This document shows positions 3,693 to 53,469 of a DNA stretch of 64,000 nt, piece after piece. Under the pieces are notes generated by a model. It saw only the letters and a program-made list of their open reading frames with translations. It had not been told where the DNA came from and did not search any database. A program made the translations under genes and the position numbers. Numbering within the stretch: position 1 is the stretch's first letter; each line of letters opens with the position of its first letter. The stretch spans positions 1,136 to 65,135 of the forward strand of contig JBBIGW010000001.1 in assembly GCA_037447355.1 (NCBI GenBank). Reading direction: 5' to 3'. The stretch is from Bacteroidia bacterium. Lineage in GTDB: Bacteria; Bacteroidota; Bacteroidia; Chitinophagales; Chitinophagaceae.

Positions 3693-6137
3693 ATGACGAT
3701 TTCGTATAAATGGCTGAGTGAATATTTACCCGCGGGGCCGGCAGGACAACCCGTTGTTGACCCGGAACGGTTGAGCCGTATCCTGACCTCCATTGGCCTG
3801 GAAGTGGAAAGCATGGAGACCTATGAAGAAATAAAGGGCGGGCTGAAAGGCCTGGTGATCGGGGAAGTATTGCATACCGAAAAACATCCCAATGCCGATA
3901 AACTAACCCTGACCCGTGTTTCTGTTGGCACCGGGGAGCCCCTGCAGATCGTGTGCGGGGCACCCAATGTGGCGGCCGGTCAGAAAGTGGTCGTGGCTGT
4001 TGTGGGCACCACTATTTATCCCTCTTCGGGTGAACCGCTGACCATGAAAGTGGCAAAGATCCGCAGTGTGGAAAGCTATGGTATGATCTGCGCGGAGGAT
4101 GAGATTGGTCTTGGCAGCTCCCATGCCGGGATCCTGGTATTGCCCGCGGATGCCAAAGTGGGTACCCCTGCCGCAGACTACTTCAAACCGTATAGCGATA
4201 TCATCTATGAGATCGGGCTTACGCCCAACCGGATGGACGCCATGAGTCACTGGGGGGTGGCCCGGGATGTTTGCGCTTATTTAAGCCACCACGATAAAAA
4301 AGATTTCAAACCCAGGCTCCCGGTAGCCAATGGCTTCAAAGCGGATACCCTTTCCTTTCCCATCGAAGTAAAAGTAGAAAACGAAGCGGCCTGTCCCCGT
4401 TATTCCGGTGTGAGCATTGACAAAGTGACGATTGGCGAATCCCCGCTCTGGTTAAAACAAAAATTAAAAGCGATCGGGTTGCGACCGATCAATAATATTG
4501 TCGATATCACCAATTATATCCAGCACGAAACCGGCCAGCCCCTTCATGCGTTTGACGCGGAACGGATCAGTGGCCGGAAAATAGTGGTGAAAAACCTGCA
4601 GGAAGGAACCCTGTTTGTGACGTTAGATGAAAAAGAAAGAACCCTGGGTGCCGACGACCTGATGATCTGTGATGAAAAAGAAGGAATCTGTATTGCCGGT
4701 GTATTCGGGGGACTGCACAGCGGGGTAACAGAAAAAACAAAAACCATCTTTCTCGAAAGTGCTTTTTTTGAAGGGATCGGCATCCGCAAAACTTCCTTTC
4801 GTCACAACCTGCGGACCGATGCGGCCAGCCGCTTTGAGAAAGGAACAGACATATCCGCTACGGTCCTGGTCTTAAAAAGAGCCGCCCTGCTGATCAAAGA
4901 AATCTGCGGCGGGGAGATTGCTTCAGAAATAACAGATAGCTACCCGAACAAAAAAGAGAAAACAGAAGTCCTGGTCAAATGGCATTATGTAAAAAAGCTG
5001 AGCGGCAAGAATTACCACCCGGATACAGCAAAAAATATACTGACCGGGCTGGGCTTTGAGATCATCAAAGAGGGAATTGATGAACTGCGGGTGTCGGTCC
5101 CGTATCACAAGCCGGATATCAGTTTACCGGCCGATATCGTGGAAGAGATCGTACGGATTGACGGGCTTGACAATATCGATATACCGGAAGCGATCACCCT
5201 TACGCCGGCGGTGGAAGAGCACTATGCCGGGGAAGTATTCCGGGAAAAAACAGCCAACTACCTGGTCGGGCTCGGCTATCATGAGATGATGACCAACTCC
5301 ATTACCAATGCGGCTTATTTTTCAGCCGGAGAACTGGAATCAATGGTCAGCATGAAGAACAGCCTTAGTGCCGAATTGAATATCCTGCGCAATTCGCTTT
5401 TTGAAACTGCGCTGGAAGTCGTGGCCCATAACCTGAACCACAAAAACAATTCCCTCCGTTTGTTTGAATTCGGGAAGGCCTACAGCACACAGGGCCCCGG
5501 TAAGTATGCGGAGCACGAACAGCTTTGTATCCTGCTCTCCGGGAATACGAGAGAGGATCACTGGAAAGAAAAAGCAATCGCTGCCGATTTTTTTGCACTG
5601 AAAGGGACCGTGGAGAATGTCCTGCGTGCACTGGGTGTGAGACCGGACCTGGGGGAAAACCTGCCGGTCCCCAAAATGCGGCATCATATCGTTTACCGGG
5701 TCAACAACCAGGTGATCGCCGGGGCGGGAGAAGTCAGCAAACAGCAGCTCGATAAATTCGGCATCAGGCAACCTGTATTTTATGCAGGCCTCAACTGGGA
5801 ATTACTGCTTACCCTTGCCGCCGCGGGCAGTTCCCAAATCCGGGAGATCCCCAGATACCCTGCTGTGCAGCGGGACCTGGCGATGATCGTGGCGAAAGAA
5901 CTGCCCTGGGCCGAGGTAGAAAAAACCGTGCAAAAGATAAAGCTGGACAAACTCCGTGACATCAAACTCTTTGATATATTCGAGAGTGAGAAACTGGGAA
6001 CGGGGAAAAAATCCGTGGCGATCAATTTTACATTCCTGGATGAAGAAAAAACCCTGACGGATAAAGAAATTGACGGCTGGATGAACCGGATTATGGGCAC
6101 CCTGGAAAAAGACCTGCAGGCCGAAATCAGAAAATGA
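3693..6137 (+). CDS. pheT: Phenylalanine--tRNA ligase beta subunit
   Basis: KHPNADKL, QIVCGAPNV, GLTPNRMDAMSHWGVARD, NNIVDITNY, RFEKG, and a C-terminal anticodon-binding domain (RYPAVQRDL). Confidence 0.98.
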   Translation: MTISYKWLSEYLPAGPAGQPVVDPERLSRILTSIGLEVESMETYEEIKGGLKGLVIGEVLHTEKHPNADKLTLTRVSVGTGEPLQIVCGAPNVAAGQKVVVAVVGTTIYPSSGEPLTMKVAKIRSVESYGMICAEDEIGLGSSHAGILVLPADAKVGTPAADYFKPYSDIIYEIGLTPNRMDAMSHWGVARDVCAYLSHHDKKDFKPRLPVANGFKADTLSFPIEVKVENEAACPRYSGVSIDKVTIGESPLWLKQKLKAIGLRPINNIVDITNYIQHETGQPLHAFDAERISGRKIVVKNLQEGTLFVTLDEKERTLGADDLMICDEKEGICIAGVFGGLHSGVTEKTKTIFLESAFFEGIGIRKTSFRHNLRTDAASRFEKGTDISATVLVLKRAALLIKEICGGEIASEITDSYPNKKEKTEVLVKWHYVKKLSGKNYHPDTAKNILTGLGFEIIKEGIDELRVSVPYHKPDISLPADIVEEIVRIDGLDNIDIPEAITLTPAVEEHYAGEVFREKTANYLVGLGYHEMMTNSITNAAYFSAGELESMVSMKNSLSAELNILRNSLFETALEVVAHNLNHKNNSLRLFEFGKAYSTQGPGKYAEHEQLCILLSGNTREDHWKEKAIAADFFALKGTVENVLRALGVRPDLGENLPVPKMRHHIVYRVNNQVIAGAGEVSKQQLDKFGIRQPVFYAGLNWELLLTLAAAGSSQIREIPRYPAVQRDLAMIVAKELPWAEVEKTVQKIKLDKLRDIKLFDIFESEKLGTGKKSVAINFTFLDEEKTLTDKEIDGWMNRIMGTLEKDLQAEIRK

Positions 6138-7138: not shown

Positions 7139-7194
7139 CTTCCGGACTTCCCGACTTCCGGTCTTCCCGACTTCCCAACTTCCGGACTTCCCAA
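7139..7194. repeat. Tandem array of seven 8-bp CTTCCNNN units
   Basis: cttccgga cttcccga cttccggt cttcccga cttcccaa cttccgga cttcccaa, abutting the TlpA stop codon. Confidence 0.9.
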
Positions 7195-8340
7195 CTACCT
7201 AACCACCTCCTCAATCTTTTTCTCCAACTCCTCCCCCCTTATATTTTTTGCAATGATCTTTCCTTCCGGGTCCAGCAGCAGGTTTTGGGGAATAGCCCGG
7301 ATGCCGTATAGTTTGGCCACCGCATTGTCCCAGAATTTCAGGTCGCTTACATGCGTCCATTCCAGTTTGTCATCATGAATCGCCTTCATCCATTTTTCTT
7401 TCTGGCCGGGACGATCCAGTGATATCCCGATTACCTGGAAATTCCGGTCTTTGTATTTGTTGAATACTTTAACCACATTCGGATTTTCAGCCCGGCAGGG
7501 GCCACACCAGCTCGCCCAGAAATCAATCAGTACATACCGGCCCCGGAGGGAAGAAAGGGAAACCGGTTTATCAAGCGTATCATTCTGCGTAAACGCAGGC
7601 GCCATTTTTCCAATACCGGTTTTCTTCGCGGTCTCCAGGCTTTCCCCGAATGCTGCGGCAGAAGGATAGTTCCTGTTGGCTGACGACAATGCATTGAACA
7701 GGGGTTCCACCTTATCGGCATTAATATCCCAGCCGGCATATTGCTTCAGGGCGTATAAAGCCAGGGGGGAGGATGGGTTCGCTTTCACAAATTCACCATA
7801 CACTTTTTCATTCTTCTCCAGGTCAATGGCATCAATCTCTTCTTCCAGTTTGTTTTGATTCCCGAGGTCCTTTGCTTTTGCATACTCCCGGTATTTCTCC
7901 ACCAAAGGTTTCATTCTTTCTTCAAATGGCTTTTCCTGCTCCTGCAGTTTTGCATACTCCTTGTGAACGGCAGAGCCCGATACGGTGATATGGCTGAAGG
8001 AATCCACCGAGGTAATGCTGATCTTACCCGGCTGAATAAAGACAGCCGCCATATCCCGGCCTGAAACCAGCGGGATTTTTATCCCTTTTTCATCCACCTT
8101 GTATTTTACCCGGATCCTTGCCAGTACCGGCTCGGCGATCTTACCGGTAAACTGGTATTTCCCTTCTTTCACTTGAGTACTGTCCGTTTTCCAGTCGTCC
8201 CCCGCCTGGTATTGCAGGAATACCCATTCCGGCTGCATTTTCAGGTCGATCAGTTTACCGCTCAACCGAAAGGGTTTCCCGCTTACCTGGGCCCCGGCCA
8301 GCAGGGGCAGCAAAAGGAACCATACTATTCCGTGTCTCAT
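7195..8340 (-). CDS. TlpA-family disulfide reductase (N-terminal DUF4369-like plus AhpC/TSA domain), exported
   Basis: Signal peptide; DFWASWCGPCRAENP CxxC motif; YGIRAIPQNLLLDPEGKII. Confidence 0.92.
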   Translation of the reverse strand: MRHGIVWFLLLPLLAGAQVSGKPFRLSGKLIDLKMQPEWVFLQYQAGDDWKTDSTQVKEGKYQFTGKIAEPVLARIRVKYKVDEKGIKIPLVSGRDMAAVFIQPGKISITSVDSFSHITVSGSAVHKEYAKLQEQEKPFEERMKPLVEKYREYAKAKDLGNQNKLEEEIDAIDLEKNEKVYGEFVKANPSSPLALYALKQYAGWDINADKVEPLFNALSSANRNYPSAAAFGESLETAKKTGIGKMAPAFTQNDTLDKPVSLSSLRGRYVLIDFWASWCGPCRAENPNVVKVFNKYKDRNFQVIGISLDRPGQKEKWMKAIHDDKLEWTHVSDLKFWDNAVAKLYGIRAIPQNLLLDPEGKIIAKNIRGEELEKKIEEVVR

Positions 8341-25867: not shown

Positions 25868-25949
25868 CCGGATGTGGTGAAATTGGTAGACACGTCAGAC
25901 TTAGGATCTGATGCCGTAAGGTGTGGGGGTTCGAGTCCCTCCATCCGGA
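25868..25949 (+). tRNA. tRNA-Leu (UAG)
   Basis: Acceptor CCGGATG/CATCCGG with discriminator A; D-loop TGGTAGAC; anticodon arm TCAGA-CTTAGGA-TCTGA; long variable arm; GGTTCGAGTCC; CCA not encoded. Confidence 0.96.
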
Positions 25950-25960
25950 CACATAAAAGA

Positions 25961-26042
25961 AAGTTGACAGGTTAAAAGGTTGACAGGTTTACATGGAAGA
26001 ACCTCAGCTTTTCAACCTGTCAACTGGTTAACTTATCAACTA
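25961..26042. repeat. 8-bp-period inverted array between tRNA-Leu and tig
   Basis: aagttgac aggttaaa aggttgac aggtttac ... ttcaacct gtcaactg gttaactt atcaacta. Confidence 0.85.
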
Positions 26043-31383: not shown

Positions 31384-32076
31384 ATGCACCTGAACTCAGA
31401 ATTTGAAAAATATGCGGTTAAACACCGCGGATTGTCCAGCAATACCCTGAATAGCTACGCTTCTCACCTGGTAACAGCCATGACGCCGAATATCATTGAG
31501 GAACGTTCCCTGAATGTGGCCGTGATGGATGTGTACAGCCGCCTGATGATGGACCGGATCATATTCCTGGGATACCCGATCAATGATGAGATTGCCAATA
31601 TCGTCACCGCCCAGTTGCTGTTCCTGGATTCCACGGACCGCACCCGCGATATCAACATGTACATCAACAGCCCCGGGGGCAGTGTGTATTCCGGCCTGGG
31701 GGTCTATGATACCATGCAGTATGTAAGTCCCGATATCGCCACCATCTGTATCGGTGTGGCGGCTTCGATGGCCTGTGTATTGCTGGGTGCCGGTACGCAT
31801 GGTAAACGCGCCGCATTAAAGCATGCCCGCATCATGATGCACCAGCCCAGCGGCGCGATCGGGGGGCAGGCCAGTGATATTGAAATCACGGTAAACGAGA
31901 TCCGCAAACTGAAAAAGGAACTCTACGAAGTGGTGAATATCCATACCGGCAAACCGCTGGAGCAGATTGAAAAGGATTTTGACCGCGACAACTGGATGAC
32001 AGCGGCAGAAGCCAAGGAATACGGGCTGGTGGATGAAGTGCTGCTGGTCAATCCCCGCAAACAGAAAAAAGATTAA
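31384..32076 (+). CDS. clpP: ATP-dependent Clp protease proteolytic subunit 1
   Basis: MDVYSRLMMDRIIFLG, YINSPGG, AASMA (Ser), MHQP (His), DRDNWM (Asp). Confidence 0.97.
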   Translation: MHLNSEFEKYAVKHRGLSSNTLNSYASHLVTAMTPNIIEERSLNVAVMDVYSRLMMDRIIFLGYPINDEIANIVTAQLLFLDSTDRTRDINMYINSPGGSVYSGLGVYDTMQYVSPDIATICIGVAASMACVLLGAGTHGKRAALKHARIMMHQPSGAIGGQASDIEITVNEIRKLKKELYEVVNIHTGKPLEQIEKDFDRDNWMTAAEAKEYGLVDEVLLVNPRKQKKD

Positions 32077-32104
32077 TTCCCTACACTTATTTTAAACCTG
32101 CTAC

Positions 32105-32749
32105 ATGAACCGTAAGAATACTTTATACACTGACCCGAAAATTTCCGGGTGGCGAATGGATGATGAAGAGGAAAAAGAAGAACAGCCCAAGAGTGACCTG
32201 GGGATGTTCAGTAAAAAACTGGAGCGCTATTTCTTTGAGAAAAGAGCGGTGTATCTCTGGGGCGTGGTGGATGATAAAAGCGCCAAGGATGTGGTCAGCA
32301 AACTGTTGTTGCTCGATGCGGACAAACCGGGGGAAGAAATCAAGTTCTATATTAACAGCCCGGGTGGGGTGGTCACCAGCGGCATGGTGATGTATGATAC
32401 CATGCAGATGATCAAGAGCCCGGTCAGTACGGTTTGTATGGGACTGGCGGCTTCCATGGGCAGTATTTTACTGAGCGGCGGTAAAAAAGGCAGCCGGTAT
32501 ATTTTCCCGCACGGGGAAGTGATGATCCACCAGCCTTCGCTGGGTGGCTATATCCAGGGCGTCAGTGCGGATCTTGAGATCCAGGCCGAACAAACCCGCC
32601 GGGTGAAGGAGATCGGGGCCGGGATCCTGGCAAAAAACTGCGGGAAGACCGTTGAGCAGGTGATGAAGGACTTTGACCGCGACTACTGGATGAACGCCAG
32701 CCAGGCCATTGAATATGGAATTGCGGACCATTTGGTCGATTCACTTTAA
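32105..32749 (+). CDS. clpP: ATP-dependent Clp protease proteolytic subunit 2
   Basis: YINSPGGVVTSG, AASMG, MIHQP, DRDYWM; acidic N-terminus (DDEEEKEE). Confidence 0.95.
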   Translation: MNRKNTLYTDPKISGWRMDDEEEKEEQPKSDLGMFSKKLERYFFEKRAVYLWGVVDDKSAKDVVSKLLLLDADKPGEEIKFYINSPGGVVTSGMVMYDTMQMIKSPVSTVCMGLAASMGSILLSGGKKGSRYIFPHGEVMIHQPSLGGYIQGVSADLEIQAEQTRRVKEIGAGILAKNCGKTVEQVMKDFDRDYWMNASQAIEYGIADHLVDSL

Positions 32750-32876: not shown

Positions 32877-34121
32877 ATGGCAAAAAACCCATTACATTGT
32901 TCATTTTGCGGACGAAGCCGCGACGAAGTGAAGATCCTGATCGCCGGACAGGAAGGGCATATTTGTGAGAATTGTGTGGAGCATGCCCGGGAGATCATCG
33001 AGCAGGAACTGACCGTGAAAGATGACCGGACCAGTTCTTCCTTCAAGCTCTCTGTAAAGAAACCCATCGAAATCAAGAAATTCCTGGACGAGTATGCGAT
33101 CGGGCAGGACGAAGCCAAGAAAGTACTGGCTGTGGCGGTTTACAATCACTATAAGCGTTTGCAGCAAAAATCACCGGATCTCAATACCGGAACTGAAGTC
33201 GAGATTGAAAAAAGCAATATCATCATGGTGGGTGAGACCGGTACGGGTAAAACCTTACTGGCCAAGAGTATTGCCCGGATGCTGAATGTTCCCTTTGCCA
33301 TCGTGGATGCTACCGTATTTACCGAAGCCGGTTATGTAGGCGAGGATGTGGAAAGTATCCTGACCCGGCTGCTGCAGGTTTGTAATTATGATGTGGCGGC
33401 TGCCGAGCGTGGTATCGTTTATATTGATGAAATTGATAAGATTGCCCGGAAAGGAGACAATCCTTCCATTACCCGGGATGTGAGCGGGGAAGGAGTACAG
33501 CAGGGGATGCTGAAACTGCTGGAAGGTACGGATGTACTCGTACCGCCGCAGGGAGGCCGCAAACACCCCGAGCAGAAACTCATCAAGATCAACACCCAGA
33601 ATATTCTCTTTATCTGTGGCGGTGCTTTTGACGGGATTGATAAGATCATTGCCCGCCGGGTACAGACCAATACCATTGGCTTTAACGTGGACAAGGAACT
33701 GCAGGACAATATGAAGAAGAACCTGCTGAACTATGTGAATGCGACTGACCTGAAAGCCTTCGGACTGATCCCGGAATTACTGGGCCGTCTGCCCGTAGTA
33801 ACCCACCTGGATCCGCTGGATGCCGCTACCCTGAGGGCCATCCTGACCGAACCGAAGAACGCCCTGATCAAACAATATACCCGCTTGTTCGAACTGGAAG
33901 GTATTTCCCTGACCATCGAGGATGAAGTACTGGATTTTATGGTGGAGAAAGCCATGGAATACAAATTAGGCGCCCGCGGTCTCCGTAGTATTTGTGAAGG
34001 AATCCTGACCGATGCCATGTATGAGCTTCCGTCCTCCAAAGAAACACAGTTTGTGCTGGACCTGGAATATGCCAAACGGAAATTTGATAAGAGTAAGCTG
34101 AGTTTGCTGAAAGTGGCGTAG
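32877..34121 (+). CDS. clpX: ATP-dependent Clp protease ATP-binding subunit ClpX
   Basis: CSFC...ICENC zinc finger, [42 protein letters not shown]. Confidence 0.98.
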
Positions 34122-34169
34122 GGGTCGAGAGGTTGAGAGGTTGAAAGGTTGAAAAGTTTAGAAGTTTTA
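34122..34169. repeat. Six 8-bp RGGTTGAR-like tandem units right after the clpX stop
   Basis: gggtcgag aggttgag aggttgaa aggttgaa aagtttag aagtttta. Confidence 0.8.
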
Positions 34170-34229
34170 AGATAATAAGAGGTTCGGGTAATACCGGGCC
34201 TTTCTTATTTTGCAGTTAAATAAAAAGCC

Positions 34230-36040: not shown

Positions 36041-36679
36041 ATGCATATCCAGGAAGCGATAGCACCTTATGCCGGCCAGCCGCTCACTCAACAGCTGCTG
36101 CAGGAGATCCTGAAGGATTATAAGAGACCCTTTGATAAGATCACCGAGCTGGTGAAACAGGACTTGCTGATCCAGGTAAAAAGGGGCCTGTATATTCCCG
36201 GTGAAAGACTGAGGCTTTCCCCGCCTGTGTCTTTTCTGCTGGCGAACCATCTCTATGGCCCCAGTTATGTGTCCCTAGAATCGGCCCTTTCCTTCTGGGG
36301 ATTGATCCCGGAGCGGGTATATGAGACCAGTTCAGTTACCCCCCGGACAAACAAAAAATACAATACGGAGGCCGGGAGGTTTAGCTACACCCATTTACCC
36401 CTGCCCTATTACAGCTATGGCATCCGGCTGGTGGAAGTGACAACGAACCAGACCGTCCTGATGGCCTCCCCGGAAAAAGCACTCTGCGATAAGATCATAA
36501 CCACTTCAAAAATATTATTGCGCAGTATGACGCAAACCAGGGATTTATTAACAGAGGATTTTAGAATCGAAAAAAGCAGTTTGCAAAAGCTGGATGCAGG
36601 GGCCATCAGCCGATGGACGAAAATAGCCCCGAAGAAAACCAGTTTAACCATGCTGGTCAAAACATTAAACAGTTTATGA
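36041..36679 (+). CDS. abiEi: Type IV TA antitoxin, AbiEi family
   Basis: N-terminal wHTH-like part (LIQVKRGLY), PSYVSLESALSFWGLIPE, ASPEKALCD; coupled to the toxin. Confidence 0.85.
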   Translation: MHIQEAIAPYAGQPLTQQLLQEILKDYKRPFDKITELVKQDLLIQVKRGLYIPGERLRLSPPVSFLLANHLYGPSYVSLESALSFWGLIPERVYETSSVTPRTNKKYNTEAGRFSYTHLPLPYYSYGIRLVEVTTNQTVLMASPEKALCDKIITTSKILLRSMTQTRDLLTEDFRIEKSSLQKLDAGAISRWTKIAPKKTSLTMLVKTLNSL

Positions 36680-37527
36680 TTAAAGAATGGCTGGAAGAAT
36701 ATAAACCGGCAACAGCGGAAGAAGCCCAGCAGGCCCTGCGGGAGATCATGCAGGAAATTGCACTGGCCGGATTACAACGAAGCGGTTTTTTTTTAGTGGC
36801 CGCTTTTTACGGAGGCACCGCCCTGCGGGTTTTTCACGGGTTGCCCCGTTTTTCGGAAGACCTTGACTTTTCCTTATTAAAGAAAGATAGAGGTTTTTCG
36901 CTGTCGCCCTACCTGGAAAGAGTGGAAAAGGAATTTGAAGCACTGGGTATTAAAGTCAGCGTCCGGGAAAAACTGAAAACGGCCGTTACTGCTGTTGATT
37001 CTGCCTTTCTCAAACCGGAAACCACCTGGAAAGAACTCATTATAAAGGAAGTACTGCCGGATGAGCGGGTAAAACTGATGCCAGAAATAAAGATCAAACT
37101 GGAGGTAGATACACTCCCTCCACCCGGTTTTAAAACGGAGGAAAAACTTTCGTTGAAACCATTCTCCTTTTATACCAAATGTTTTACCCTGCCGGATCTT
37201 TTTGCCGGGAAAATGCATGCCTTACTGTTCAGAAAATGGAAGGGGCGGGTGAAAGGGAGGGACTGGTTTGATATGGAATGGTATATTCAAAAAGGAGTTC
37301 CCTTACACCTGGACCATTTCCTGCAACGGGCCATTGACAGTGGCGACTGGCACAAAACGGCTATCATTGAAAAACTATTTAAACAACTGTTGCACGACAA
37401 AATAAAAGCTGTTTCTTTCAAAGCTGTCCGGGAAGACATCATACGTTTTATTCCGGATGCGAATGTGCTGGATATCTGGTCACCAGACTATTTTAGTGAT
37501 TTAGCGGAGAAAATCAGGTTTCAATAA
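36676..37527 (+). CDS. abiEii: Type IV TA toxin, AbiEii nucleotidyltransferase
   Basis: FYGGTALRVFHGLPRFSEDLDF, KIKLEVD, LFAGKMHA, RVKGRDWFD; start 36676 forms an ATGA overlap with the antitoxin stop. Confidence 0.9.
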   Translation: MIKEWLEEYKPATAEEAQQALREIMQEIALAGLQRSGFFLVAAFYGGTALRVFHGLPRFSEDLDFSLLKKDRGFSLSPYLERVEKEFEALGIKVSVREKLKTAVTAVDSAFLKPETTWKELIIKEVLPDERVKLMPEIKIKLEVDTLPPPGFKTEEKLSLKPFSFYTKCFTLPDLFAGKMHALLFRKWKGRVKGRDWFDMEWYIQKGVPLHLDHFLQRAIDSGDWHKTAIIEKLFKQLLHDKIKAVSFKAVREDIIRFIPDANVLDIWSPDYFSDLAEKIRFQ

Positions 37528-42381: not shown

Positions 42382-42485
42382 TTATTGATTACTGATTATT
42401 GCAAGCAGTACTTCAATTCGCAGCAATCTTACAATTTATTATTATCCATAAGCCTGATGACTCCCGTCTATAAAAATTTCCATTT

Positions 42486-43193
42486 ATGAAATATGCCGGT
42501 CTGCTGATTGTCCTGCTGCTACATTATGCAGCGGGGGCACAATCATTTGAATACCCTATTATCAAAGCGGAAGCAGGCACACCCCTTCAGTTTATCCCGG
42601 AGAAATGGATTTTACGAGACAGCGCAACTGGCGATCTTAATAAAGATGGTTTAAAGGATGTTGTGCTGATAATTCAATTAAGGGACAGTATCCCCATTTA
42701 TACTATTGAAGGAGATAACGCAGATACCGTTATTACTCAACCCAGGATGCTGCTGATACTTTTCCGTCTATCTGATCCGGATATGTACCGTTTAGTGGTT
42801 CAGCAAAATTCATTTATACCGCTCCATGACTCCCCTTTAATGGAAGATCCGCTGGACGGAATTACGATCAGGAATTCAGTGATCAGTTTTCAATTCCATT
42901 ATTTTCAAAGTATGGGTAGCTGGTACATTAGTAACAATGTTTACCGGTTCCGATACCAGCACGGGCAGTTTGAGCTGATTGGCGCAGATGAAATGACAGC
43001 AAACCGGGCATCAGGCGAAATGGAAACACGCAGCATTAATTTTATTACGGGGAAGGAAAATTATGTCACTGGAAAAAATTTTACCGGAAGAAATGAGCAT
43101 ATAAAAAGTACCTGGAAGAAAATCCCGGATTCCAAACCGGTCCTTTTGCAAGCTTTAAAGAACAGTGAGCTTTACAAACTGTTTAGTTATTAG
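42486..43193 (+). CDS. Exported hypothetical protein with one FG-GAP-like motif
   Basis: Signal peptide; ATGDLNKDGLKDVVLII; YRFRYQHGQFELIG; about 40% GC in sampled lines. Confidence 0.8.
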   Translation: MKYAGLLIVLLLHYAAGAQSFEYPIIKAEAGTPLQFIPEKWILRDSATGDLNKDGLKDVVLIIQLRDSIPIYTIEGDNADTVITQPRMLLILFRLSDPDMYRLVVQQNSFIPLHDSPLMEDPLDGITIRNSVISFQFHYFQSMGSWYISNNVYRFRYQHGQFELIGADEMTANRASGEMETRSINFITGKENYVTGKNFTGRNEHIKSTWKKIPDSKPVLLQALKNSELYKLFSY

Positions 43194-43250
43194 CCGGTCT
43201 CCTTGCTCCTGAAAAGCGAAAAATCCCAGGCTGAACCCGGAGTTTTAATT

Positions 43251-43565
43251 ATATCACCCCTCCCACCTACGCTAGCCCTGTCTGCCGGACAGGCTGGGCT
43301 ATGGAGTGCAGGCCGGGCCGTGTTGCCAATTGTGTAAGGTATATGACTGTTGTAAATTACCCTAAGCACGAGACCTCCAACATCCAACCTTCCAACTTTT
43401 ATTGTGTCACCCTTCCCTCCTTCGCTAAACCTGCCCAACGAACAGGCAGGGCTACAAGGGCAGGCCGGGTCTGCCACCTTATAGCAGAAAGAAACTAATT
43501 GAAGTAAGTTTACCCTAAACACGAAACCCCGAACCCCGAACCTGCAACTTCTCACCTCCAACCTT
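43251..43565. repeat. Two tandem copies of a composite intergenic repeat, each with a 21-nt palindromic insert
   Basis: Host hairpin CCTCCTTCGCTAAA^GCTAC..., inserts at 43277-43297 and 43430-43450; shares 26 identical bp (43352-43377) with 45133-45158. Confidence 0.85.
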
Positions 43566-44851
43566 TACCTCAGTTCCTCCACCTTTACCCGGGATGGAGT
43601 TTCATTTCCCGCGATAATACTTTTGGAACTGAGCGCAATGGCTTTGATCACTTCCGTCATATTCTCCATATCGAGCGTCTCCACCTGGTCCGAGAGTTTA
43701 TGGTAATGCGGCTCCACATCCATCTTTGACGTGGAGATCGTATGGGCCGGCACACCCAGTCTCGCCAATGTGGCATTATCAGAACGGTAGAATAATTGCT
43801 GCGCGGGATACGGATCGGGATAAAACGTGAAGGCCGTTCCCTGCAGATCTTTTGCCAGGATCTCTCCCATATTGGTCTTTTCGTAACCGGTTATATAGGC
43901 CGAATTCTTCCCCCACCTGCTTTCGGTACCGATCATTTCAATATTGAACATGGCCACGACTTTGTCCGCGTCCATTTGCCTGGAAAAATACTGGGAACCG
44001 AAACCACCTACTTCTTCTGCAGTAAAAGCTGCGAAGACCAGGGTTCTTTCGTTATCACCGCGTTCTTTAAAATATTTTGCCAGCATGATCACCGCGGTGG
44101 TACCGGCCGCGTCATCATTAGCGCCGTTGTAAATGGAATCTCCCTCTACTGGTTTGCCGGTACCGAGATGATCATAATGCCCGGAAAATACCACGTATTC
44201 ATTTTTCCTGCTTTTCCCGGGAATAACTCCCACCACATTGGCCATTTTCTGTTCCGTGATTTCGTGCACGGCTTCGATCGCATACGTTACAGGCACTGTA
44301 TCAGTGAGGATAAAAACAACAGAGGTATTGGTCTTGAACAGGGAAGATTTCAACCGGACCAGGTTGCCGAAACCGTTGGCAAAGCTTTTCTCCACCCACG
44401 CGATCGTATTCTTATTACTTCGGACCAATTTGCGGGCTTCGGTCTGCAGGTTGGCGCCCGTTTTAATAAATGCCGTTTCATATCCGGAGGTCTGATCGAT
44501 CCTTAACTGAGGCTGACAGGTGATCACCATCACTGATTTTTGTCCGATAGCCTGCCCGTCAAGGGTGGCAGACGCACTGATAAACTTCGGGCGCACCATC
44601 GCGAATTCCTGGCGGTAGCTGCCGCTGTTGCCGGGTGTGCCGAGACCAATCGCTTTAAATTCTGCAGTAATAAAATCAGCCGCTTTATCGATATCCGGGG
44701 TAAAAGTGCGGCGGCCGCGCATGTCATCGGAAGCAAGGGTTTTTTCAATGCGTCCTACTTCTTTTACATTAATTACTTCAAGACCTTTTTGCGCGGAGAG
44801 GGTTAATCCTGCTGTAATAAACAGGAAAAATGAAATGGATTTTTTAATCAT
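43565..44851 (-). CDS. M28 family metallopeptidase, exported
   Basis: SGHYDHLG, NGANDDAAG, FTAEEVGGFGS, NIEMIG, RSDNA, HYHK..D. Confidence 0.93.
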   Translation of the reverse strand: MIKKSISFFLFITAGLTLSAQKGLEVINVKEVGRIEKTLASDDMRGRRTFTPDIDKAADFITAEFKAIGLGTPGNSGSYRQEFAMVRPKFISASATLDGQAIGQKSVMVITCQPQLRIDQTSGYETAFIKTGANLQTEARKLVRSNKNTIAWVEKSFANGFGNLVRLKSSLFKTNTSVVFILTDTVPVTYAIEAVHEITEQKMANVVGVIPGKSRKNEYVVFSGHYDHLGTGKPVEGDSIYNGANDDAAGTTAVIMLAKYFKERGDNERTLVFAAFTAEEVGGFGSQYFSRQMDADKVVAMFNIEMIGTESRWGKNSAYITGYEKTNMGEILAKDLQGTAFTFYPDPYPAQQLFYRSDNATLARLGVPAHTISTSKMDVEPHYHKLSDQVETLDMENMTEVIKAIALSSKSIIAGNETPSRVKVEELR

Positions 44852-44880
44852 TCGGTTTTTGTTCTGAATATGACGCTTTT

Positions 44881-45290
44881 TATAATGTCACCCCTTCGGG
44901 GTTTGTAAATTGTTTGCTGCCTGTTTCTATAATAATTTCAGCCCTTCGGGCTTATTTTCCTATACCGGGAAGAAGCCTATCACTAAACATCCAACCTTCC
45001 AACCTTTATTGTGCCACCCCTACCTCCTTCGCTAAACCTGCCTGCTCGCCTCGCGGCGAAGCGGGCCGGACAGGCGGGGCTACGGAGGGCAGGCCGGGCT
45101 TTGTGCCAATTGTGTTAGGTATTATGTCTTTAGTAAATTACCCTAAGCACGAGACCTCAAACAATCAACCTTCCAACATCCAACCTCAAACATCCAACCT
45201 CCAGCCCACCTGTAAACCTCTCCCCTTATCACGAGACTACCTGCCTACCGTCCCGCTTCGCCGCGAGGCGAGCTGGCAGGCAGACTACTG
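44881..45290. repeat. Composite intergenic repeat cluster with nested palindromes
   Basis: Two SCCC-TTC-GGGS hairpins, a third copy of the composite unit with a 42-nt nested insert (45037-45078), 7-8-bp AACMTCC arrays, and a second 42-nt nested insert (45241-45282). Confidence 0.85.
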
Positions 45291-45296
45291 ACTAAC

Positions 45297-46025
45297 TCAG
45301 AGGCTCATCATCTCCTTAAACTTCACCGTCTGCCTCCGGCTTACTTCAATTTTCTCGCCGCCTTTCAGGTCCAGTAACAGGCCTCCGTTAAAATAGGGTT
45401 CGATTTTATCGATCATGCGCAGGTTGACAATATGTTTGCGGTTGGCACGGAAAAATACTTTCTCGTCCAGCCGTTCTTCCAGGGCATTGAGTGATTTTAA
45501 GATCAGGGGCTTGTTGGATCCGAAATAAACTTTGGCATAATTGCCCACACTTTCAAAGAGGCGGATCTCGTTCAGCTTTACAAACCAGCAGCGCTCCCCG
45601 TCCTTTACAAATACCTGGTCGTGCTCGGAGAGAATACTGTTGTTGACAAACTCTGTATCGGTCCGTTGTTCCCGGTTTTCAGACTGCTGCAATTTCTGAA
45701 TCGCATCCGCCAGCCGTTTGGGCTCCACCGGTTTCATCAGGTAATCCAGGGCATTGACCTCAAAGGCTTTTAAGGCAAACTCATGGTGCGCCGTGGTGAA
45801 GATGACCTGCGGAGCTTTGTCCAACTCGGCCAGCATATCAAAGCCGGTTTTTCCCGGCATCTGGATATCCAGGAAGATCAGGTCGGGTTGCAGGGATTCG
45901 ATCTTGGCCAGCGCGTCTTCCGCGTTGACCGCTTCATCAATCACTTCCACTTCAGGGAAATCCTGCAACAGTTTTCTTAATTCCAGCCTGGCAAGGCGTT
46001 CGTCATCAATGATAATTGCTTTCAT
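45297..46025 (-). CDS. LytTR-family response regulator
   Basis: IIDDERLAR, FLDIQMP, FTTAH, DYLMKP; C-terminal FFRANRKHIVN...VSRR. Confidence 0.95.
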   Translation of the reverse strand: MKAIIIDDERLARLELRKLLQDFPEVEVIDEAVNAEDALAKIESLQPDLIFLDIQMPGKTGFDMLAELDKAPQVIFTTAHHEFALKAFEVNALDYLMKPVEPKRLADAIQKLQQSENREQRTDTEFVNNSILSEHDQVFVKDGERCWFVKLNEIRLFESVGNYAKVYFGSNKPLILKSLNALEERLDEKVFFRANRKHIVNLRMIDKIEPYFNGGLLLDLKGGEKIEVSRRQTVKFKEMMSL

Positions 46026-47130: not shown

Positions 47131-47340
47131 TTGCTACAAATCTAATGATTCCAGTCTCTTATCCACCCGATTTAATATACCAGTGGCCGATAATGCCTGT
47201 AAATGGAACCCCCGATTAGACCGGCCTGTGGCAGGCGGGTTAAGCCCTGCGGGAAATTAATGTTAAACCCGTTTTTCCAAAACCGGCCATTATGGCGATC
47301 TGCCGGAAAACTGTACTTTTACAGCAGCAAACCCTGAACT

Positions 47341-53363: not shown

Positions 53364-53469
53364 AAGTTGAAAAGTTAACAGGTTGAAAAGTTAACAGGTT
53401 GAAAAGTTGACAAGGAAGGCTTCTTAGAAGATCCCTTGTCAACTTTTCAACTTATCAACCTGTTAACCC
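53364..53469. repeat. 8-bp-period inverted array (six plus four units) upstream of ppk2
   Basis: (aagttgaa aagttaac)(aggttgaa aagttaac) aggttgaa aagttgac ... gtcaactt ttcaactt atcaacct gttaaccc; perfect 12-bp inner stem AAGTTGACAAGG/CCTTGTCAACTT. Confidence 0.9.

Follow-up and report, generated by a model that had tools for sequence, protein, structure and literature searches.

We consider it likely that the intergenic DNA described here is a nest of tiny non-coding hairpin insertion elements, four levels deep, which would be non-autonomous, recognised by their fold and mobilised in trans. The nest lies within the window, by which we mean the whole stretch of 64,000 nt that was analysed, and its parts are three families of short palindromes, here called A, B and C, and a resident hairpin, H0 (Table 1). 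The three copies in the window consist of H0 with C and B, and A is added in copy 3; therefore, there are four levels (H0 < C < B < A). An earlier note on this DNA, whose quoted sequences and coordinates all proved exact on recheck, had recognised that hairpins are nested there and had counted three levels, which is too few, as H0 forms a further outer level. For every level of the nest, empty and filled versions are known from close relatives or other genomes.

Table 1. Positions in the window of the elements, their hosts and the neighbouring genes (^ marks a point of insertion; / separates the two parts of a split element)
Feature	Positions	Strand	Remarks
Hairpin H0 (CACCCCT..CGGGC), loop holding C	45015-45103	+	Outermost level
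Element C, 30 nt, CCTCCTTCGCTAAA / GCTACGGAGGGCAGGC, split by B + A	45023-45094	+	Covariance-model score 31.7 bits
Element B, 21-nt palindrome CCTGCCTG / CCGGACAGGCGGG, split by A	45037-45078		
Element A, CTCGCCTCGCGGCGAAGCGGG, 21 nt	45045-45065	+	Innermost insert, in B at CCTGCCTG^CCGG
Copy 1: diverged C with 21-nt B (43277-43297)	43263-43313	+	
Copy 2: C with 21-nt B (43430-43450)	43416-43465	+	
Two empty H0 hairpins: TCACCCCTTCGGGGTT (44888-44903), TCAGCCCTTCGGGCTT (44938-44953)	44888-44953	+	Repeat family D4
GACTACN heptamer array	45229-45296	+	Downstream of the LytTR gene; host to the second B + A insert
Element B, 20 nt, CCTGCCTACCGT / CTGGCAGG, carrying A	45240-45280		Between GACTACN array units
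Element A, second copy, reverse complement	45252-45272	-	
Repeat of about 150 nt, copies 1 / 2 / 3	43225-43400 / 43385-43570 / 44975-45215	+ (copy 3)	
M28 peptidase gene	43565-44851	-	Palindrome nests occupy both its flanking spacers
LytTR response regulator gene	45297-46025	-	Near the M28 gene
Look-alike palindrome	47220-47240		Outside the A, B and C families; relatives' sequence equally long and diverged; no clean indel

Setting of the locus

The window has a GC content of 49% and belongs to a Bacteroidota MAG that was assembled from a subsurface (groundwater) metagenome. Its placement in this phylum is based on the type IX secretion genes SprB, PorP/SprF and CHU_C and on LytTR homologues that bear the names Sphingobacteriales or Chitinophagaceae. 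The three C hairpins are parts of three copies of an intergenic repeat unit of about 150 nt, every copy of which ends in a tandem array of 7-8-nt units (CCAACNT), and at the position of copy 3 this unit is not present in relatives. Both A copies and the region around them were recovered in a Logan assembly of the same sample, made independently. The sole difference of the Logan contig from the window is a run of 14 extra bases (GACTACTGATTACC, two heptamers) at 45282/45283, which reflects either a length polymorphism in the population or a difference in assembly; Logan contigs break in this region. A scan of the whole window with Rfam 15 at the gathering score matched only a tRNA, and a permissive Rfam scan of 43150-45350 gave a single match at chance level and no RNA family.

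The orthologous M28-LytTR region was compared in three relatives (L162, which is JACRJO010000032.1, L164 and L165) whose LytTR sequences are 95-99% identical to that of the window, and empty alleles were found there. About 35 nt upstream of the M28 start, an empty H0 (ACCCCGAAGGGGTGGCA) is present in the window, L162 and L165, and in L164 it holds a 30-nt C without B. The GACTACN array after the LytTR gene is unbroken in all three relatives, and in the window a 20-nt B with A stands between its units. The GACTAC direct repeat flanking this block, which the earlier note had pointed out, is thus the host array itself and not a target duplication, since the array is uninterrupted in the relatives. 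The block, given there as 42 nt, measures 41 nt (45240-45280) if B is delimited by its canonical ends, with 20 nt belonging to B and 21 nt to A. The look-alike in the last row of Table 1 is a stretch that varies among orthologs and not an insert. At the place homologous to that of the window's C, L162 holds a 28-nt A-like hairpin with a long loop (4350-4380; CTCGCCTCGC-TAAGCCAGG-CGCAGCGGG, reverse strand).

Several other features of the region may be recorded here. The spacer between the M28 and PcrB genes measures 1183 nt in the window and 49, 287 and 190 nt in L162, L164 and L165, respectively. About 1.1 kb of this spacer (42382-43564) is an insert specific to the window, the spacer of the 98% relative being 49 nt long, and contains an ORF (42486-43193, 235 aa, no Pfam family) together with repeat copies 1 and 2. 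An AbiEii nucleotidyltransferase toxin gene (36613-37527) is preceded by an overlapping ORF of 212 aa with no Pfam hit, and the two (36041-37527) probably form a toxin-antitoxin pair of the AbiE type. Repeats of 8 nt (of the GTTGACAG / AGGTTGAA type) make up inverted arrays, which would form long hairpins, at 25963-26041, with a tRNA (25868-25949) on one side and the trigger factor gene on the other, and at 53364-53459; direct repeat arrays are located at 7139-7203 (CTTCCCGA, seven times) and 34114-34172. Two ClpP paralogues side by side, followed by ClpX, occupy 31384-32749, an ordinary arrangement.

Element A and its distribution

A consists of a bulged 17-nt hairpin with a CGGG tail, and its ends are CTCG and CGGG. 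It occurs exactly twice in the window, for which 0.01 matches would be expected by chance. The inverted match around the two copies extends over 33 nt (45037-69 versus 45248-80, 94% complementary) because both occupy the same point in similar palindromes. Read off the sequence, the reverse strand as RNA would be CCCG-CU(U)CGCC-GCGA-GGCGAG, with a GNRA loop, and the fold of A is not significantly more stable than that of shuffled sequence (z = -1.0).

The 21-mer is not confined to this locus. A scan with one genome per species found exact A in more than 114 MAG stretches from about nine phyla among the matches listed. By record label, the hosts are Patescibacteria, Bacteroidota, Planctomycetota, Nitrospira, Omnitrophota, Elusimicrobia, Margulisiibacteriota, WOR-1 and Actinomycetota, and finer labels include many Patescibacteria classes, Sphingobacteriales, Lentimicrobiaceae, Bacteroidales, Phycisphaerae, Pirellulales, Sedimentisphaerales and an actinobacterial family. 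The 'uncultured Gammaproteobacteria' labels of several TPA records (L004, L009, L015, L090 and others) look wrong for such AT-rich contigs; the ribosomal protein L1 of L090, which has a long Lys-rich N-terminal extension, is close to the protein of a Patescibacteria MAG (L098). At least 28 copies are present in the Sphingobacteriales MAG JACRJO01, the 98% relative, and the Levyibacteriota MAG JACPAR01 has five among the matches listed.

In 0.9 Mb of DNA flanking A, there are 122 exact copies and 13 with one to four mismatches, and length variants are few (24-33 nt, with the added bases in the loop, among them a 27-nt variant). Continuously varying insert lengths, which the earlier note had named as a refuting observation, are not seen for A, whose length is fixed at 21 nt. 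The claim that all inserts are exactly 21 nt long holds for A but not for B (16-24 nt) or C (30 nt). At orthologous sites, A is identical at 21 of 21 positions, while the flanks are only 57-78% identical; judging from the sequences compared, such identity amid diverged flanks is not what simple selfish insertion followed by neutral decay would predict. A is also found nested within itself, at two loci (L043 and L059).

All genome matches to A are MAGs of uncultivated lineages, so there is no confirmation from an isolate. Exact copies are also present in single-contig 'chromosome' records (OY970292, OY969116 and CP070837) from many studies and in assemblies made with IDBA, MEGAHIT and SPAdes, as read from the contig names. 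A had no match in the viral contigs of IMG/VR, and thus a phage vector cannot be claimed for it. Searches of PLSDB and INPHARED for the 41-nt composite of B and A gave either nothing or partial matches at chance level.

Elements B and C

B is a palindrome of 16-24 nt, mostly 20 or 21, with the ends CCTG and CAGG; inside C, it measures 16 nt in one case, 20 nt in 13 and 21 nt in six. Several variants of B are found both empty and filled with A in the genome of one relative (L108, L109), and a 31-nt element in L171 occupies the site of A within B. The exact 20-mer CCTGCCTGCCGGCAGGCAGG is present in 35 stretches of IMG/VR viral contigs, at sites that include heptamer arrays and tRNA genes. For instance, B lies within tRNA genes in L141 (2239-2330), L148 (515-534) and L118 (8616-8635); in L141, ARAGORN calls a 92-nt tRNA-Met of which B is the extra variable arm, and in L148, B is in the D-loop and no tRNA is called.

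C is an imperfect 24-nt hairpin with a 6-nt tail and the ends CCTCC and RCARGY, and its TAAA loop receives B. The notion that one host hairpin is found three times holds as far as the number of copies is concerned, but the exact arms CCTCCTTCGC and GCTACGGAGG are present in copy 3 alone, those of copy 1 (CCACCTACGC...GCTATGGAGTG) and copy 2 (CCTCCTTCGC...GCTACAAGGG) having diverged. C itself is placed in the TTCG loop of H0, a resident CCCC-TTCG-GGGG hairpin. Elsewhere, empty C (CCTCCTTCGCTAAAGCTWCGGAGG) is present in eight viral stretches of IMG/VR, the junction of C with an inserted B is present in 49 metagenome stretches with about 35 contexts, and at one locus (L178) two C copies that share their 3' flank stand in tandem, one of them empty and the other filled with B.

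A covariance model of C gave 87 hits in 1.56 Mb. By length, 43 of these are empty (29-31 nt), 17 have other loop sizes, and 23 are B-filled (50-51 nt), a number that is inflated by the choice of loci; the deepest nest among the hits is the 72-nt C < B < A of the window. In an alignment of 72 hits (A4), 94% of the cells are paired and two-sided changes are found in five of the seven pairs, which was matched by none of 500 shuffles; one pair, for example, is U-A in 46 hits and G-C in 11. This alignment was fitted to the model, and the result concerns the C superfamily rather than A alone. A, its 24-33-nt variants and C have one common architecture, and the 30-nt variants of A and the 31-nt element of L171 resemble the layout of C; on these resemblances, A may be a shortened member of the C superfamily.

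Some viral contigs are particularly rich in C. The contig L155 (IMGVR_UViG_3300037755_001324) has seven hits of the C model in 11.9 kb and encodes a 5-hmdU DNA kinase domain, DUF5131 and DUF2303, and L153/L157 (IMGVR_UViG_3300017528_000210), also viral, has many copies of the C family. The ten ORFs of a C-rich viral contig have phage-type domains only and no transposase.

Insertion sites

A is found in B palindromes, between tandem heptamer units, in the loops of other small hairpins and in long ORFs. The proposal in the earlier note that mobile micro-palindromes target hairpin loops in either orientation is borne out with respect to dispersal, nesting and the two orientations, but loops are not the only targets, as heptamer arrays and coding sequence receive these elements too. 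Insertion into B, at CCTGCCTR^CCGG(N)CAGGCAGG, accounts for 32 of 119 sites. Outside B, the flanks have G or T at position -2, G or A at -1, and C (58 of 87), T (25 of 87) but never G (0 of 87) at +1, and positions -3 and +2 show no enrichment. The target is a weak [G/T][G/A]^[C/T] step, which in hairpin loops takes the form CYTN^Y, and microhomology on the left is lacking at some sites, for example ...AAAGTT^C.

Pairs of empty and filled sites, such as TCCTGAACTTG^TTTCAGGA (19 versus 40 nt) and TTCCCGCCTT^CGCGGGAA (18 versus 39 nt), differ by exactly 21 nt and show no target duplication; within heptamer arrays, the insertions are in phase. Apart from GACTACN, the heptamer arrays that host elements include caaagtt, cagaatt, caatttc and ctgacaa. 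Two other accounts were rejected: a restriction site would explain the ^CCGG position in B, but other A sites lack CCGG, and the 42-nt composite of B and A cannot be the sole mobile unit, as A is carried by several B variants that are also found empty.

A within protein-coding genes

Read off the sequence, A is free of stop codons in every frame. In ORFs of at least 150 aa, it lies in the sense direction in 56 cases and antisense in 24, and in 35 it is in phase to encode xSPRGEAG; among at least 64 copies in long ORFs, co-orientation with the gene prevails by 50:14. Host proteins include RpoC, ValRS, LepA, DnaJ, L1, GyrB, SecA, UvrA, DnaN and RF1, and the sites used within proteins are loops that tolerate an insert. 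For instance, in an alignment with solved LepA sequences, the gap falls exactly at the SPRGEAG insert. The insert is present in 10 of the 120 nearest Curtissbacteria DnaJ homologues and absent from the other 110, in the form GSPRGEAG or, from the 27-nt variant, GSPRFAGEAG, and one carrier, P0169, stands amid non-carriers, which indicates that the site gained the insert a second time. The complete DnaJ locus with A was recovered in at least nine independent runs from several studies, and a related dnaJ contig is shorter by exactly 21 nt across the A site.

In intergenic DNA, A is not biased towards either orientation with respect to the genes beside it, which serve as a proxy for the replication strand in pieces of 8 kb; a replication-strand-specific mechanism therefore gains no support from this comparison.

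Possible mechanisms

The sites of A, B and C favour looped or single-strand-prone DNA. H0 received C, the TAAA loop of C received B and B received A, and a separate B with A lies in the heptamer array. In the scenario that we prefer, A, B and C would be mobile but non-autonomous, and their fold would be what is recognised. An enzyme acting in trans and cutting without stagger would insert them while the target DNA is transiently single-stranded, and an HUH/Y1-type transposase or a structure-specific recombinase would be, by analogy, the candidate type of enzyme. Spread between phyla would occur through the horizontal transfer of carrier DNA. Pfam scans of the 47 ORFs of the window found no transposase, integrase, reverse transcriptase, HUH or RAYT domain, in agreement with the earlier note, which had seen no mobiliser in this DNA. 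All-against-all clustering of 1,939 ORFs from 114 A loci yielded no gene family in more than four loci, and the locus was absent from the sole metatranscriptomes of the relevant studies.

Going further, A might propagate across phyla with neither an element-encoded nor a linked enzyme, parasitising a universal activity of replication or repair, or else an unrecognised but widespread enzyme. No smaller mobile element with horizontal spread would then be known, and A would be causing ongoing insertions of seven residues in essential CPR proteins. B and C, as sister families, would nest in one another and in this way give rise to modular intergenic DNA. We advance this wider reading tentatively, and it is probably too bold.

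It has also to be asked whether any enzyme is needed. A nascent strand could switch to another hairpin copy and back through 1-2 nt of microhomology, so that no dedicated mobiliser would be involved and any host could propagate the element. The left flank, GG/G, mimics the 3' GGG of A and the right flank, C, mimics its 5' C; target duplication is absent, no linked gene was found at the 114 loci, and host polymerases alone would suffice for spread across phyla. However, template switches are normally local, whereas here identical boundaries recur at more than 100 unrelated sites with 1-2 nt of homology, and neither the sites that lack left microhomology nor the unenriched positions -3 and +2 fit such a process well. 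We regard templated insertion as unlikely.

Elhai and colleagues reportedly proposed, in 2008, that cyanobacterial small dispersed repeats move through an RNA intermediate, and transcription followed by reverse transcription or retro-homing could be envisaged for A as well. Although the co-orientation of A with long ORFs is in keeping with such a route, selection on the encoded peptide explains this bias equally well, and both orientations are found, in genes and in the window. The GNRA-loop fold of the reverse strand of A and the covarying stems of C can also be counted in its favour, but a reverse transcriptase is neither present in the window nor recurrent near A copies, and we give this route little credence.

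Rather than being mobile, A could be a selected signal that acts in DNA uptake, in the binding of a protein or as a terminator, whose identity is kept by selection and which spreads by recombination. Its intactness at orthologous sites with diverged flanks, its preferred reading frames inside genes, which recall uptake sequences, and the inverted pair of A copies downstream of a gene in the window would all suit this idea. The copies nevertheless originate as clean 21-nt insertions and not as substitutions, their density is low even in the MAGs with at least 28 and five copies, the same sequence is common to about nine phyla, and the location of sites inside essential proteins argues against a regulatory role, which leaves a selected signal only a slim chance of being correct. 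Finally, a purely local origin by slippage, quasi-palindrome correction in place or misassembly, to which the broken Logan contigs, the differing number of heptamers in two assemblies of the same sample and the restriction of A to MAGs might seem to point, is hardly credible given the identical 21-mer across assemblers, studies and 'chromosome' records, the repeated recovery of the DnaJ locus, the conserved in-frame positions in orthologs and the existence of both point and length variants.

If A, B and C are indeed mobile, as we think likely, the lower size limit of transposable DNA would be around 20 nt, and such small elements would not be a cyanobacterial peculiarity. Their mobility would also explain the origin of modular hairpin-rich spacers and the link of these spacers to heptamer arrays, provide a source of short in-frame insertions in essential CPR proteins, and account for the breaks of short-read assemblies at such sites. 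That one sequence is found unchanged in about nine phyla suggests that horizontal spread makes use of a route or machinery not yet recognised. Moreover, the plentiful empty and filled sites make the movement of REP- and SDR-like repeats, a question long open, directly testable.

Comparison with known systems

Literature searches by sequence string and by keyword found no publication describing A, B or C. By analogy, the best reading is that they would be non-autonomous micro-elements of the cyanobacterial SDR or REP type. REP and REPIN sequences, which are associated with RAYT (Y1 HUH) transposases (PMC3116915, PMC3733652), are likewise imperfect palindromes, 20-40 nt in length, in which a short head or tail stays unpaired, and they too have a high copy number and neither terminal inverted repeats nor a target duplication. 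In contrast to REPs, the ends of A, B and C have no GTAG or CGTC tetranucleotide, and A is not extragenic, with at least 64 copies in long ORFs. No cognate RAYT is found among the 47 ORFs of the window or among recurrent neighbours, and the elements are not lineage-specific, A being found in about nine phyla, and are mostly singlets, not inverted doublets.

Members of the IS200/IS605 family, such as IS608 and ISDra2, move as single strands by 'peel and paste', depend on two ends that differ from each other and on a strictly defined target of four or five nucleotides, and are no shorter than 600 nt, their derivatives no shorter than 100 nt. They share with A hairpin-defined ends, the absence of a duplication and of terminal inverted repeats, and insertion beside a short motif. 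A would also, like them, require DNA in single-stranded form, and this could be supplied by hairpin loops and slipped repeats. Nevertheless, A is much smaller, its target is only a weak [G/T][G/A]^[C/T] step, and a TnpA gene was not found in the scanned ORFs. IS1397 and ISKpn1, as well as the IS110/IS621 family, target REP hairpins and are autonomous insertion sequences of about 1.4 kb, which encode the transposase or recombinase that they use. Insertion in both cases favours the loops of small palindromes, but A, B and C are tiny and non-coding. MITEs differ in their size of 50-500 nt, their terminal inverted repeats and their target duplication, as opposed to 20-30 nt and no duplication here. 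Likewise, DUS and USS sequences occur at about one copy per kb, are species-specific and arise by substitution, whereas A is sparse, crosses phyla and arises by insertion.

Palindromic elements are also known from organelles and from Rickettsia. Fungal mitochondria contain 'byp' elements and double-hairpin elements. The mobile palindromic GC clusters of yeast mitochondria (PMC4478555) are likewise tiny GC-rich palindromes in AT-rich genomes, with rapid turnover and transfer between species. They merge or nest into new elements, occupy coding sites on occasion, and have a mechanism that is similarly obscure. The parallel is looser in that these clusters are organellar, measure 30-60 nt, have a putative AG target duplication and do not cross phyla. 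Rickettsia palindromic elements, as Ogata and colleagues are said to have found in 2000, are inserted in frame in genes and tolerated as an extra surface peptide. The in-frame insertion of a palindrome into protein genes is common to both cases, but the Rickettsia elements measure 100-150 nt and belong to a single genus.

The closest resemblance is to the cyanobacterial small dispersed repeats. In 2008, Elhai and colleagues reportedly described SDR1-8 in heterocystous cyanobacteria as repeats of 21-27 nt that are nested, located in heptamer arrays and marked by compensatory changes in their hairpins. We know of no mobiliser of SDRs. A (21 nt) and B (20-21 nt) are similarly short and dispersed, they nest (H0 < C < B < A, C < B and self-nested A) and are embedded in heptamer arrays, and SDR5 sits precisely in the HIP1 palindrome, as A does in B. 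A shared hairpin with compensatory changes, here that of the C superfamily, and the lack of a mobiliser complete the likeness, which is one of description. The hosts, however, are Bacteroidota, CPR and others instead of cyanobacteria, and here one element is identical across phyla and often in frame within essential genes. The cyanobacterial SDR work is cited in passages of PMC4390886 and PMC3116915. Thus, SDRs would be the nearest precedent for A, B and C, which differ from them in that the same sequence recurs in many phyla, in that essential genes are often entered in frame and in that the nest is four levels deep.
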